From the IMG/VR virus record IMGVR_UViG_2703718853_000004: 42,889 bases of DNA; one strand, 5' to 3'. Below the pieces are notes generated by a model, which worked only from the letters and a program-made list of their open reading frames with translations, did not search any database and had not been told where the DNA came from. The position numbers and the translations under genes were made by a program. The stretch comes from a virus (taxonomy: Duplodnaviria; Heunggongvirae; Uroviricota; Caudoviricetes). Below, piece by piece: positions 9,928-14,732 of this stretch; position 1 is the stretch's first letter; the number at the start of each line of letters is the position of its first letter.

Positions 9928-10527
9928 TTAACCTCCCGAGATGAAACCGACAAACCGGCTTAGTAGCGACTCATCTTTCGGAGTCGGCGTCTTTACCCCT
10001 GAGTTTTGCACCGCTGACGTGTTCACCCCCTCTTTCATGTTTTCCTTCGCTGCCACGCTGACTGTCTGCGTCTGACTGGTGATTATTTCCCTGAGCGTAA
10101 CTGTCGCCATCAGTACGTTTTCGCTGGTACGTTCGGTCGTCACATCCAGAGAGCGGATCACCATATTGGTATAAAGACGTTTCCCGGTGGTCACATCAAG
10201 CAACTGCCTTTCCTGCTGCATTTTGAGCAGCTCAGCATAGACTTCCTTAGGCCCCATGTTGTTAAGGGGCGTAGACAGCCCGATGCCTGCTGTATCATAA
10301 AAATCCAGCAAGGAACCACCACCAGCAAAGCCTATCTCCATAACGACTTCTGACGGGCGCCGATATGCATGGTCTGCAATGAACCCTGTTCCTGCGCTTG
10401 TAGGCCTTTCAACTGGATGCTCTGTCACCTCCAGAGCATCGCTATGACGCTCTGAAACCACCACGTCGGGTATCATCAGACCAATACGGCGGCTCCGCTG
10501 CTGGAAAAGGGTTGAAAGAATATCCAT
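9928..10527 (-). CDS. Tail protein (199 aa)
   Basis: Immediately downstream of the tape measure gene. Confidence 0.5.
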   Translation of the reverse strand: MDILSTLFQQRSRRIGLMIPDVVVSERHSDALEVTEHPVERPTSAGTGFIADHAYRRPSEVVMEIGFAGGGSLLDFYDTAGIGLSTPLNNMGPKEVYAELLKMQQERQLLDVTTGKRLYTNMVIRSLDVTTERTSENVLMATVTLREIITSQTQTVSVAAKENMKEGVNTSAVQNSGVKTPTPKDESLLSRFVGFISGG

Positions 10528-12527
10528 CAGCTCGGCCCCCGGGTTAGTTGCTGGGTTGCGCGTGCATTAACGTTGCCCTGGCTTTCAGAGACGATTTTCC
10601 CCGCCTCTCTCGGATCGCTGATACCAGAAATGTTGATGACGGTATTCTGGTTCAATGTCGCGCCAGCCCCCGGCATATTGCTCAATACCTTGGGGATATA
10701 TTGCCTGGTTTCCTGCGGCATCAGCGCCATGCCGTACTTCTGCACGTTACCAATCCCCCAGTTATAGGAGGCCAGAGCTTTACCCAGATCGCCGCCGTTC
10801 TTCTGCAGGAGCATCGAAAGATATCGCGCCGCCGCTTCCGCTGACTTGATCGGGTCGAAGACATCATTCCCGTGTAGCCCCATATCCCGAGCGGTACCAG
10901 GCATAAACTGGAACATCCCTTGTGCGCCAGCACCGGATACAGCGAACTGATCCCCCCCTGATTCAGTGATAGCGACACTTCGCAGAAGACCAGAAGGCAG
11001 GTTATACATAGCCTCCAGTTTACCCATCATCGGAGCCATCCATCCAAGCAACTGAGCCCCTGCTTTTGAAGGTGACGGTCGTTTAACTGATTGCCCGTAC
11101 TGCGTGGCATCACCATTCCACCAGTCAACAGCCTTATCCCATAACCCCTGCCCGACAGAGGCGGCACCCTGAATAACTGGACTGTCACTCCACGCTGCGG
11201 CTGCGCCTTTAAGCGAATCCCATGCGCCGGAGAAATCACCACTAATAACCTTTCGCAGCGCATCCACCAGCGAACCAAGGATTTTGATTGAACTGCGGAC
11301 GCTTTCGATAATCTGGTCAAACAGCCATTTGCCATTAAATTTCGACGTGTCGATATTAATGAATTCAAGGAATCGCTTACCCAGATCGAGAATGGCAGAA
11401 CCTAGGTCTTTAACCTTCACATAGATGCCACCGAAGTCCTTACTCAGGCTGGCAAAAGCCTTTTGGGCATATTTGATACCCGGCTCCCATTTTCCCCAGT
11501 CTATAAGCGACTGGCCGCCTTCTTTCCATGTGCGGTAATCGTCGTAGAGACCTATCAGCGCAGCACCCAGCATAATGACGCGCCCAATAGGCGACATCGC
11601 AAAGGCACTATTCAGGAGACGCCAGGCAATCATTAGCGCCCCAAACACCTCGATAACCTGTCTGGTTTCGGTACCGAGTGATTTCCACCAGTTGATAATG
11701 TCCCCGGTGAGCTGTATCAACCGATAAACCACCCGGCCAATGATTTCACCAAACCACAGGACACCTTTGATACCAGCAGTGATAGCCCCTTCAATTTTCG
11801 GGAAATTCTCCATGATCTGACGGCGCAGCCTGTCGAGAGAGCCAGCAAGTCCATCAGCGAGACTGGAGCCGATTTTATCCCGTGCCATGCCTGCCATCAG
11901 CCCAAAGGAGCGCAGCGAGGTCATGAATTTATTGGAGCTGACGGCGGCCACATCGGCGTTATAGCCGATCGCCTTCGCCATCGCGGTGTATTCGCCACTA
12001 AACTGGCCGATACCGCGACGCATTGCCATCAGGGTGTTTTCATCCAGACCCAGCATCTGAGCGTACTGGTTCGCGCGGTAATACGGCATGCTGCTAAGAC
12101 GCTGGCCGACGCCGGTAAAGATCGTCGCCATATCCCGCATGTTGCCGCTGGCATCACGCGTTTGAACTCCCAGCCGGTTGAGGAAACCCTCAGCGCCGGG
12201 ATTGTTACGCATGAACCGGGCAAGATTTTCGAGAGAGCCGCGGGCCCCGTCGACACTGCCGCCAACCTGACTAACTGCATACCCTATCTGCTTAATACCC
12301 TCTACCGTCGCGCCTGTGCGCTGAGAGGCCCAGTACAGGTCGTCGAGACCGCTGGCAATTTTCGCGGTGAATGCAACGACGGAAAGCGCCGCCGCCTCAA
12401 CTTTGACGCCCAGCTCAATCGCTTTAAGCGTTGTCCCGGCAACGACGGCATCGAATTTTCTGGCGCCAGCCTCATCAACTTTGAACCCAAGCGAGATCAG
12501 AAAGTCCTTGAGCGTTTCAGCGTTCAT
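10527..12527 (-). CDS. Tail tape measure protein with C-terminal lytic transglycosylase (SLT) domain
   Basis: 666 aa; Ala/Gly-rich helical N-terminal part; C-terminal ITESGGDQFAVSGAGAQGMFQFMPGTARDMGL matches the SLT catalytic-region pattern; follows chaperone, tube and sheath genes. Confidence 0.75.
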   Translation of the reverse strand: MNAETLKDFLISLGFKVDEAGARKFDAVVAGTTLKAIELGVKVEAAALSVVAFTAKIASGLDDLYWASQRTGATVEGIKQIGYAVSQVGGSVDGARGSLENLARFMRNNPGAEGFLNRLGVQTRDASGNMRDMATIFTGVGQRLSSMPYYRANQYAQMLGLDENTLMAMRRGIGQFSGEYTAMAKAIGYNADVAAVSSNKFMTSLRSFGLMAGMARDKIGSSLADGLAGSLDRLRRQIMENFPKIEGAITAGIKGVLWFGEIIGRVVYRLIQLTGDIINWWKSLGTETRQVIEVFGALMIAWRLLNSAFAMSPIGRVIMLGAALIGLYDDYRTWKEGGQSLIDWGKWEPGIKYAQKAFASLSKDFGGIYVKVKDLGSAILDLGKRFLEFINIDTSKFNGKWLFDQIIESVRSSIKILGSLVDALRKVISGDFSGAWDSLKGAAAAWSDSPVIQGAASVGQGLWDKAVDWWNGDATQYGQSVKRPSPSKAGAQLLGWMAPMMGKLEAMYNLPSGLLRSVAITESGGDQFAVSGAGAQGMFQFMPGTARDMGLHGNDVFDPIKSAEAAARYLSMLLQKNGGDLGKALASYNWGIGNVQKYGMALMPQETRQYIPKVLSNMPGAGATLNQNTVINISGISDPREAGKIVSESQGNVNARATQQLTRGPS

Positions 12528-12762
12528 TAGCCTCTCTCCATTTCGCTATACGGTTTTCGTTATCGGCTTTCAGGTCCAGCCAGTCATTCATACGGGCAAT
12601 ATCAGCCAGGTCTACTGATCCATCTTTCAGGGCGGTGTAGGGGATGAGCCCGGCATCCACCGGGCGCATCAGGAAATCCTCGCCTTCTGGCATGGATTCC
12701 AGGGCTGGACCTATGGCTGGGTAGGCGTCTCGCTGGCGGGGAGTTCTTTCAAAAAATTTCCC
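12517..12762 (-). CDS. -1 frame extension ORF of the tail assembly chaperone (gpG/gpGT-like programmed frameshift product)
   Basis: Slippery heptamer G_GGA_AAT (forward 12756..12762) in the chaperone 0-frame; the -1 frame is open from there to a stop at 12517, overlapping the tape measure start. Confidence 0.4.
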   Translation of the reverse strand, partial: GKFFERTPRQRDAYPAIGPALESMPEGEDFLMRPVDAGLIPYTALKDGSVDLADIARMNDWLDLKADNENRIAKWREANER

Positions 12763-13130
12763 AGACTATCGGCGACCACCCGCGCCACCAGCTGCAGCAT
12801 AGTAAACAGGTCGATATCGTCGAACATAAGCACGCCCTGATCGAAGACTTTCGCCCAGCCCTTTTCGTGCTGGCGGGAAACGACACTCAGGCACGGATAA
12901 ATCACCGCGTTAACGTCGTCGTCCGGCAGCGCTGCCAGCGTATCGGCAATTTTCGGCAGTACGCTTTCCAGCACAGCGCCGGAGTTACCAGCGGCGACCT
13001 GAGCCTTCAGCGTAGAGAATTCACTGACCAGACCAGCCAGCACGGGCAGAAGCTTACGACTGACCTTCAGCTGCTGGAAAACGTCGAGTTTCGCTGTGCG
13101 GTAGTTAACGCCCTTAATTTCAAATTCCAT
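12711..13130 (-). CDS. Tail assembly chaperone
   Basis: 139 aa acidic protein between tail tube and tape measure genes, with a downstream -1 frame extension. Confidence 0.55.
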   Translation of the reverse strand: MEFEIKGVNYRTAKLDVFQQLKVSRKLLPVLAGLVSEFSTLKAQVAAGNSGAVLESVLPKIADTLAALPDDDVNAVIYPCLSVVSRQHEKGWAKVFDQGVLMFDDIDLFTMLQLVARVVADSLGNFLKELPASETPTQP

Positions 13131-13133
13131 CGA

Positions 13134-13577
13134 TTAAAACTCCCCCAGCAGTTGGTCAATCTTACCGGCGTCAAATACCCACGACACCGTATTGCCAACC
13201 TTGGCGTTAGCGTGATCCGGCTGCTTCTGGAATGCGCAGCTACGCGCGGTGGTGATATCGCCTGACACCTTGTTTCGGATGACAATCACGTTATTACCCC
13301 AGGTCGCCGAGGACTGGCTCTGCGCGTTATACATCAGGGACAGTTTTTTGTTCACCGGGGACGTTTTCAGCAGGGTAACTGTGATGGTGCCACTCTTACC
13401 GGCGTGCAGGCTGTGCATCACCTCACCATCGGCGCCGACGGTCATGGTGTTTTTTGCCTCGGTCATCGCAACCGTAATACCTTCTTCGGAGTTCGCCGAG
13501 CCGTAGCCCAGATCGATACTGCCGGTTGGGCCCGTCAGGGATGCCGAGACGTCAATAAAACTATAGGTTCCGCTCAT
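13134..13577 (-). CDS. Tail tube protein (DUF3277-like)
   Basis: 147 aa, directly downstream of the sheath-like gene. Confidence 0.6.
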   Translation of the reverse strand: MSGTYSFIDVSASLTGPTGSIDLGYGSANSEEGITVAMTEAKNTMTVGADGEVMHSLHAGKSGTITVTLLKTSPVNKKLSLMYNAQSQSSATWGNNVIVIRNKVSGDITTARSCAFQKQPDHANAKVGNTVSWVFDAGKIDQLLGEF

Positions 13578-13586
13578 GGTCGCTCC

Positions 13587-14732
13587 TTATCGCACCACAT
13601 TGATCTGCACGTCGGCATAGTGAATGGCACCCGCCAGTTTGATCGCCGCCTGAATCACCGGCGACTTACGCGCTTCCCTGTCGGACTGCGCCTGGTTATC
13701 TACTGAATCGGCGTAGACGTAGTAACCCTTGGTCAGTGTGTCACCTGATTCAATCTGGCCGATCGGGCCGCCATTCCATACACCCGGAGCAATAAGGCCG
13801 TTATTTACCGCCTGATCCAGTGAGGCTTCGACGTTGGTCATTAACCGGGTTACGCCCGCGTCGGTTTGCGGAATTTTGGTATTCGAGGTGTACAGCAGGT
13901 TGTAAAGGTTGGTCTGAACGTAGTTCTGCAGCCAGTCCAGCCCGTGGCGCTCATCAAAGAAATCACCGTTCGCCATGACACCCTGCTGGATAATCGCTGT
14001 ATCGTTGGCGTAGTAGACGTAGACGTTACCGTTAATGGCATCAATAGCGGACGCCTGCGCGGTCGTGAGCGTTTCGTACGTCACGCCAGGCTCGGTTTTG
14101 AATTTCAGGGTGATCGTGGTGTTGTTGCCGGTGAAATTCACCGTAAACGCACGGCCAAATGCCGAGATAGCGGCGTATTTGCTGCTGGAGCTGTACTGCC
14201 AGAACGTACGGCTGTAGCCGGCGGCTTTCAGCTTATAGCCGATGTTGTCGGTATTCCCCGAGACCAGCACATTCACATCATCAGTGGTAACGGCCAGAAT
14301 GCGACTCAGGCTGGATGCCTCGATCGCCGCAGCAACCGAAATCACGTCAGCCTCAACCAGATCGGCGCTATCGGCAATCGCCAGCCCGTACCAGTTGGTA
14401 TATTGCAGAGAGGCATTAACCGCCTGCAGCAGCGTTTCAACTGTGCCATCTTCACCTTCCGCCAGCGTCTTCGCCCAGCGGCCGATATAGACCAGCGTCG
14501 GTTTTGGTGATTGTGAAAAGAAGATGGTCGCTGCTTCGTATTCCGGGGAGTCAACGCCAAAATCATCGCCGATATCTTCAATGGCCGAATACTGGCGAAT
14601 GCGCTCGGTAACCGGAATAACGGTAGAGGTTCCCAGAATGAGGAGCGCACCGAAGTTTCGCCCCGTTGCCGCTACCGGTGACATGATGACGTCAACGTTA
14701 ACGACATTGGAAACAGGTAAGCCCTGTGCCAT
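13587..14732 (-). CDS. Tail sheath-like protein (DUF3383-like)
   Basis: 381 aa, upstream of tube and chaperone; implies a contractile tail. Confidence 0.6.

Follow-up and report, generated by a model that had tools for sequence, protein, structure and literature searches.

A probable programmed −1 ribosomal frameshift between a tail assembly chaperone and its DUF6889 extension in a contractile-tailed phage

In the 42,889-nucleotide (nt) stretch of DNA analyzed here as a whole (the window), from the caudoviricete virus record IMGVR_UViG_2703718853_000004 of IMG/VR, the stop codon of a tail assembly chaperone gene is separated by 183 nt from the start of the tape measure gene, and this interval is exactly occupied by an open reading frame (ORF) that is in the −1 frame with respect to the chaperone. 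The question raised by this locus is how that ORF comes to be translated. Very probably, the answer is a programmed −1 frameshift, in which ribosomes would slip within the run GGGAAATTTTTTG near the chaperone gene's 3′ end, most likely on its middle heptamer A_AAT_TTT, to yield both the chaperone and a fusion protein. A preliminary description of the window, made from its letters only, had already proposed a frameshift of the gpG/gpGT type at 12517-12762, with GGGAAAT as the slippery heptamer. The elements concerned are as follows.

13130..12711, minus strand: short form ("G") of the tail assembly chaperone, 139 residues, zero frame, stop codon TAG at 12713-12711 (ORF list and translation)
12762-12750, minus strand: slippery run GGGAAATTTTTTG, three overlapping in-phase heptamers
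12762-12756, minus strand: G_GGA_AAT, with the X_XXY_YYZ phase G(12762)_GGA(12761-12759)_AAT(12758-12756)
12759-12753, minus strand: A_AAT_TTT, 3 bases downstream of G_GGA_AAT, the likeliest operative heptamer
12756-12750, minus strand: T_TTT_TTG, the third in-phase heptamer of the run
12765..12517, minus strand: −1 frame ORF, 82 sense codons and TGA (translation), the part from 12753 onward being the "T" extension
12526..12642, minus strand: conserved C-terminal DUF6889 domain of the extension (Pfam PF21829, E 3.2e-20)
12693-12691, minus strand: ATG within the −1 ORF, start of a mechanically called 58-residue ORF, probably not a functional start

The zero-frame codons of the minus strand near the chaperone gene's 3′ end read GAT AGT CTG GGA AAT TTT TTG AAA GAA. 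The −1 frame is closed by TAG at 12768-12766, stays open from 12765 to 12520, and ends with TGA at 12519-12517, and a shift is possible only between 12765 and the zero-frame stop at 12713-12711. The −1 ORF overlaps the chaperone gene by 52 nt and the tape measure ORF by 11 nt, its stop sitting 8 nt inside the latter. The heptamers of GGGAAATTTTTTG lie in phase within the overlap of the chaperone and the −1 ORF, as is expected of a slippery sequence in the G/GT-type frameshifts of tail assembly chaperones, reportedly the class of Xu, Hendrix, and Duda in 2004. Translation of the frames thus agreed with the coordinates given in the preliminary description, with its placement of G_GGA_AAT in the correct phase near the chaperone 3′ end, and with its estimate of an open −1 frame of about 80 codons that ends just within the tape measure gene. 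To gauge chance, in-phase XXXYYYZ heptamers were counted in every ORF of 120 codons or more on either strand of the window. There were 62 of them in 15,536 codons, and the −1 frame was open for at least 80 codons at only 2.6% of codon positions; among these ORFs, only the three heptamers of GGGAAATTTTTTG have a −1 ORF that extends past the zero-frame stop by 40 codons or more. A Shine-Dalgarno-like stimulator upstream was considered and rejected, the sole G-rich stretch, GGGTGG about 21 nt upstream, being a poor match to the anti-Shine-Dalgarno sequence.

Both parts of the presumed fusion belong to protein families. The 139-residue ORF matches Pfam PF21822 Phage_TAC_15 (E 1.3e-34; 119.9 bits against a cut-off of 22; residues 6-129 on profile positions 1-122 of 127) and PHROG 1688, "tail assembly chaperone" (E 5e-56). 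Residues 42-80 of the −1 ORF cover profile positions 2-40 of 40 of DUF6889 (72 bits against a cut-off of 23.9), and its residues 29-82 match PHROG 4364 (E 2e-27). NCBIfam holds no model for either the chaperone or the extension, and no sequence relative was found in the PDB. The conserved domain indicates that the −1 ORF is a genuine coding sequence.

The arrangement was then followed through relatives. The census was drawn from 80 close loci of IMG/VR, 16 distant phages, and 74 prophages, the last located via the extension domain in contigs representing one genome per species, and the removal of duplicates left 155 distinct chaperone-plus-extension sequences (69 close, 86 distant). The genera covered are Klebsiella, Escherichia, Salmonella, Yersinia, Hafnia, Citrobacter, Photorhabdus, Providencia, Edwardsiella, Acinetobacter, Bordetella, Achromobacter, Burkholderia, Cupriavidus, Ralstonia, Pseudomonas, and others. 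The homologous slip site was placed by the geometry of the frames and then by an alignment of the chaperone proteins that is blind to nucleotides. All 155 sequences carry the extension in the −1 frame with respect to the chaperone and have the homologous site within the open −1 window. A tblastn search with the predicted fusion returned 40 phage records, whose identity ranged from 98% to 32%, and all 40 matched in two pieces and in two frames. The arrangement and its slip site are thus kept despite divergence of the sequences, as is expected of the class.

Apparent in-frame G-T fusions in five GC-rich loci proved to be something else. Four of these (L128, L152, L162, and L167) have a long accidental open −1 frame and a normal chaperone ORF upstream, and in L170 the domain stands in an unrelated context, for which the locus was removed from the set. 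Two further sequences do carry a single ORF. In a relative of the Escherichia coli phage vB_EcoM-606R2 type (L173:1895-1910; Logan assembly SRR23924998_45326), the run reads GGGAAATTTTTTTG, with seven T versus six, and the chaperone and extension are fused into one ORF of 213 residues (P0002, 16 member sequences); either a homopolymer error in sequencing or a natural variant that makes GT only could account for this. In an ENA contig (P0001, 193 residues), the chaperone N terminus is joined to the −1 frame (…IYPCLDEGVRSGR…GKFFERTPRQ…) about 45 codons upstream of the usual site, probably through an indel or an assembly error in a close relative.

The mechanism that we propose is as follows. A small share of the ribosomes translating the chaperone gene would slip back by one base within GGGAAATTTTTTG, with the tRNA-Asn in the peptidyl (P) site moving from AAT to AAA and the tRNA-Phe in the aminoacyl (A) site from TTT to TTT, both one base upstream, and the slipped ribosomes would read the −1 frame as far as the TGA at 12519-12517. 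Two products with a common N terminus would result: the abundant 139-residue chaperone and a rarer fusion of 204 residues, which is composed of residues 1-126 of the chaperone and 78 residues bearing DUF6889. A slip on A_AAT_TTT is predicted to give the junction ...SLGNF-FERTPR..., whereas one on T_TTT_TTG would give ...LGNFLERTPR...; the fusion peptide expected from the former, or from a slip on G_GGA_AAT, is VVADSLGNFFER, and that from the latter is VVADSLGNFLER. The flanking heptamers G_GGA_AAT and T_TTT_TTG may contribute extra slips. By analogy with gpG/gpGT of phage lambda, the role predicted for the common N-terminal part is to coat the tape measure protein, and that of the extension is to bring in the tail tube subunit.

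Two other origins of the extension can be envisaged, both of which dispense with ribosomal slippage. DUF6889 might be made as a separate 58-residue protein by re-initiation at the ATG at 12693, which lies 18 nt past the chaperone stop, and gene callers do list such small ORFs separately, as in the 50-residue coding sequence of MK448230, in Hafnia phage yong1, and in the "DUF6889 family protein" entries of Burkholderia. However, an ATG is found at that codon in 40/137 relatives, all of the close clade, with Leu codons (mostly CTG or CTT, also TTA and the like) in all other clades, and 76/137 have no ATG, GTG, or TTG between the slip site and the domain; the extension thus has no conserved start codon of its own, which agrees with the G/GT class. 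No clear Shine-Dalgarno sequence precedes the ATG at 12693, the conservation of the −1 frame sequence reaches back to the slip site (FFxRTPYQRD), and in the lambda model the T domain functions only when fused to G (PMC5009743), all of which makes re-initiation very unlikely. Slippage of RNA polymerase on the run of six T, which would gain or lose a base and so make the fusion at the level of the transcript, seems less credible still. The T6 run does exist, and the public assembly with seven T mentioned above fuses the two frames. Runs of six residues are, however, shorter than those known to support efficient transcriptional slippage in bacteria, most distant relatives have just four T (CCT TTT ATY) in the same arrangement, and a conserved hairpin spaced 6 nt from the site in relatives, described below, is a hallmark of ribosomal frameshifting.

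If a programmed −1 frameshift is accepted, the next question is which of the three heptamers slips. The alignment gives a clear picture of the column of Phe126, whose codon is the TTT at 12755-12753: the residue is Phe in 153/155 sequences and is then always encoded by TTT, and the base before the codon is T in 155/155. In 51 GC-rich loci, TTC accounts for 81% of the Phe codons elsewhere and T stands at only 12% of third positions, so that the conservation of T_TTT runs against codon bias. The heptamers at the homologous place are distributed as follows.

GGGAAAT: 67/69 close relatives, 27/86 distant relatives
Canonical X_XXT_TTT (AAATTTT, CCCTTTT, or GGGTTTT): 69/69 close, 52/86 distant
TTTTTTG: 69/69 close, 8/86 distant
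T_TTT tetramer only, without a canonical heptamer: 0/69 close, 21/86 distant

T_TTT_TTN of any kind is present in 37/86 distant relatives. Two close relatives have a synonymous Leu change (to CTT in L008 and to CTA in L061) through which G_GGA_AAT is the only heptamer lost. Within the enteric clade, the codons GGA AAT TTT TTG are invariant among 72 distinct sequences; the neighboring Gly, Phe, and Leu columns are mostly GGC, TTC, and CTG, and the slip codons are nonpreferred ones. What is known of E. coli ribosomes points in the same direction, since Sharma et al. (2014) placed H_HH.U_UU.Y motifs (A_AAU_UUU, C_CCU_UUU, and U_UUU_UUY) in the high-efficiency class (PMC4066793). In the same organism, re-pairing of AAU or AAC in the A site onto AAA is tolerated poorly, and among the tetramers U_UUC and U_UUU rank next below A_AAG, with U_UUG near the background (PMC4066793).

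The RNA downstream of the site in distant relatives bears on the same point. In 41 distinct sequences of the "TTT ATN" type, which come from prophages of Acinetobacter, Burkholderia, Achromobacter, Cupriavidus, and Pseudomonas and from phages Magia, AbTJ, BgManors32, and ZHS, a helix of 8 base pairs begins exactly 6 nt after TTT. The consensus of the hairpin is GGGCUGCU...AGCAGCCC, with loops of 8-30 nt, and examples among the loci L091-L168 are those of Burkholderia phage Magia (L094:1023-1051) and Acinetobacter phage AbTJ (L092:1021-1056). All eight pairs form in 30 of the sequences and seven in another 9, as against eight of eight in 18/410 at control offsets, although the paired share is inflated, the 3′ arm having been picked for its best pairing. 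Two-sided changes that preserve pairing are seen at seven of the eight pairs, and the covariation score of the helix was reached by 0/500 shuffles, with slid controls scoring far lower. The spacing of 6 nt marks TTT independently as the A-site codon. GC content and common ancestry confound the correlation between the number of heptamers and the stability of the hairpin (Spearman 0.59), which is not relied on here.

On the basis of the conservation of T_TTT, the motif rules of E. coli, and the 6-nt spacing of the hairpin in relatives, the operative event is most likely a slip of tRNA-Phe on T_TTT, which in the present phage means the middle heptamer A_AAT_TTT. The heptamer singled out in the preliminary description, G_GGA_AAT, is present and in phase but is probably not the main slip site. 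Slippage there would re-pair tRNA-Gly on GGG in place of GGA and tRNA-Asn on AAA in place of AAT and would give the same product as the A_AAT_TTT slip (...LGNFFER...), and the heptamer is well kept among close relatives. However, it is missing in 59/86 distant relatives, the synonymous changes in L008 and L061 destroy it while the other two heptamers stay, and the re-pairing that it would demand in the A site is the one poorly tolerated in E. coli (PMC4066793), so that we regard G_GGA_AAT as an unlikely main site. About equally improbable is a main slip on T_TTT_TTG, with the junction ...LGNFLER..., which would be made in the manner of E and E+E′ of phage P2. TTTTTTG is invariant throughout the close relatives and the enteric clade, but it occurs in just 8/86 distant ones, where even T_TTT_TTN reaches only 37/86, and as an A-site tetramer U_UUG performs weakly in E. 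coli (PMC4066793). The invariance of TTG, moreover, is also demanded by the codons TTT-GAA of the −1 frame, and because this dual coding explains it too, it cannot discriminate between the slip sites.

Apart from that ambiguity of TTG, several observations tell against our interpretation, some against the choice of A_AAT_TTT and others against slippage as such. In Bordetella phage vB_BaM-IFTN9 (L088:948-1060) and in a prophage of Achromobacter sp. HZ34 (L104), the codons read GGA AAT ACT/ATT TTC; the conserved TTT is lost, G_GGA_AAT is the sole canonical heptamer, and GGGAAAT is followed at 5-7 nt by a very stable hairpin (−27 to −31 kcal/mol). In this lineage, the slip site seems to have shifted one codon upstream. 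In favor of T_TTT_TTG, phage P2 offers a precedent, since according to PMC3091744, which cites Christie 2002, it makes E+E′ via a −1 shift at TTTTTTG with no downstream structure. The RNA of the present phage itself provides little: a 131-nt segment around and downstream of the site folds at z = −1.5, which is no notable structure, the consensus structure of the enteric clade amounts to −7.6 kcal/mol with zero compensatory pairs, and at the offset homologous to the helix, sequences of the enteric/Photorhabdus type typically form 5/8 pairs, below the control offsets. The efficiency of frameshifting in this phage could therefore be low, because no stimulatory structure is detectable in its clade. 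In addition, the literature on chaperones of the Phage_TAC_15/DUF6889 type yielded no detection of a fusion and no measurement of efficiency.

A stable and conserved structure 5-9 nt after the heptamer, as expected of stimulated −1 frameshift signals (a slippery site with a downstream hairpin or pseudoknot), is thus found in the distant relatives only and not in the window. The search for such a structure, which the preliminary description had recommended, has a divided outcome: nothing is detectable in this phage or its clade, and a covarying hairpin exists in distant relatives. One possibility, which we put forward tentatively and hold somewhat more doubtful than not, is that a single chaperone family uses two interchangeable designs of signal, a minimal site with a hairpin and a hairpin-less triple run. 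The nonenteric design may consist, often, of a T_TTT tetramer with an imperfect match in the P site and the covarying hairpin 6 nt downstream, and in the enteric/Photorhabdus lineages, including this phage, the hairpin may have been lost, with three overlapping heptamers in its stead. If this is true and the ratio of G to GT is constant, the family would constitute a natural series on the trade-off between redundancy of the slip site and an RNA stimulator. It would also assign to DUF6889 and PHROG 4364 the function of a frameshift-encoded "T" domain.

The neighboring genes, all on the minus strand, are in keeping with the proposal.

14732..13587, minus strand: tail sheath protein, Pfam PF11863 (DUF3383 / E217_gp31_N), E 2e-103
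13577..13134, minus strand: tail tube protein, directly upstream of the chaperone, Pfam PF11681, E 7e-62
12527..10527, minus strand: ORF of the tape measure protein, 666 residues, ATG at 12527, C-terminal SLT domain, E 3e-24

The order of sheath, tube, chaperone, and tape measure puts the chaperone in the position that is characteristic of the G/GT class. The model of lambda gpG/gpGT is textbook knowledge, as is its conservation in long-tailed phages (PMC5009743). The gpG/gpGT-type arrangement named in the preliminary description holds well for this locus as regards the chaperone family, the conserved −1 domain, the gene order, and the −1 geometry in 155 relatives. As in lambda, the gene lies between those for the major tail (tube) protein and the tape measure protein, the two products would share an N terminus, the −1 shift would take place near the 3′ end on a run of the GGGAAA type, the extension terminates at the tape measure gene, and neither product is expected in virions (PMC5009743). 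The two systems differ in that the sequence family here is Phage_TAC_15 plus DUF6889, for which no solved structure matches in sequence, and that the present phage is contractile-tailed. The lambda site, furthermore, is G_GGA_AAG, whereas the last base here is T, with which the efficient slip of tRNA-Lys from AAG to AAA is unavailable, and the A-site tRNA involved is likely tRNA-Phe.

P2 is closer in other respects, being a myophage with the order of sheath, tube, chaperone, and tape measure and with TTTTTTG in phase without downstream structure (PMC3091744). Its E gene has, however, no sequence relationship to this chaperone family, and in the present phage TTTTTTG is one of three overlapping heptamers and is unconserved beyond the enteric clade. 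Direct homologs are found in Klebsiella phage Mulock (MN098327), with 87% DNA identity and an identical GGGAAATTTTTTG run, and in Burkholderia phage Magia (gp15/gp16), which, unlike this phage, has the single heptamer C_CCT_TTT and a downstream hairpin. The frameshift in Mulock and Magia is an annotation made by the curators of these records.

That annotation also bears on the statement in the preliminary description that no database record would capture the product. GenBank carries, for both Mulock and Magia, a two-piece joined coding sequence called "tape measure chaperone frameshift product," so that the statement fails for these two phages, but it stands for the nearest relative and for most records. 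The deposited Magia fusion, YP_010668111.1, is identical to our reconstruction, with the junction ...ANLGPF-YQRAAY within GGC CCT TTT. For the exact join in Mulock, 0/4 candidate fusion sequences were found in the protein collection, and the frameshift is not mentioned in the genome announcement of that phage. In the nearest relative, Klebsiella phage ST16-OXA48phi5.2 (MK448230, 99.8% identity), the chaperone is labeled "hypothetical protein," and a 50-residue piece of the −1 ORF (L172:1332-1484, corresponding to 12669-12517 of the window, minus strand) is labeled "NTP pyrophosphohydrolase," which is very likely a misannotation. The NCBI pipeline calls similar fragments "DUF6889 family protein," Pfam DUF6889 and PHROG 4364 enter the domain as being of "unknown function," and among the 120 homologs listed, all but 3 are present as the short form only.

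Most records of related phages and prophages either lack the extension or give it as an orphan small ORF (DUF6889, PHROG 4364), and the joined product would explain what these orphan families are. For the long form, we propose the gene model join(13130..12753, 12753..12517), minus strand, 204 residues. The practical value of the case lies in annotation, and biologically it holds nothing new in kind: the feature is of an already known kind, among the best-known recoding events in tailed phages, and it has already been annotated in relatives.

One minor observation concerns the tape measure protein (10527-12527, minus strand), which besides a weak match to Pfam PhageMin_Tail has an SLT lytic transglycosylase domain at its residues 502-600. 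Because of this C-terminal domain, the protein probably doubles as a tail enzyme that digests the cell wall.

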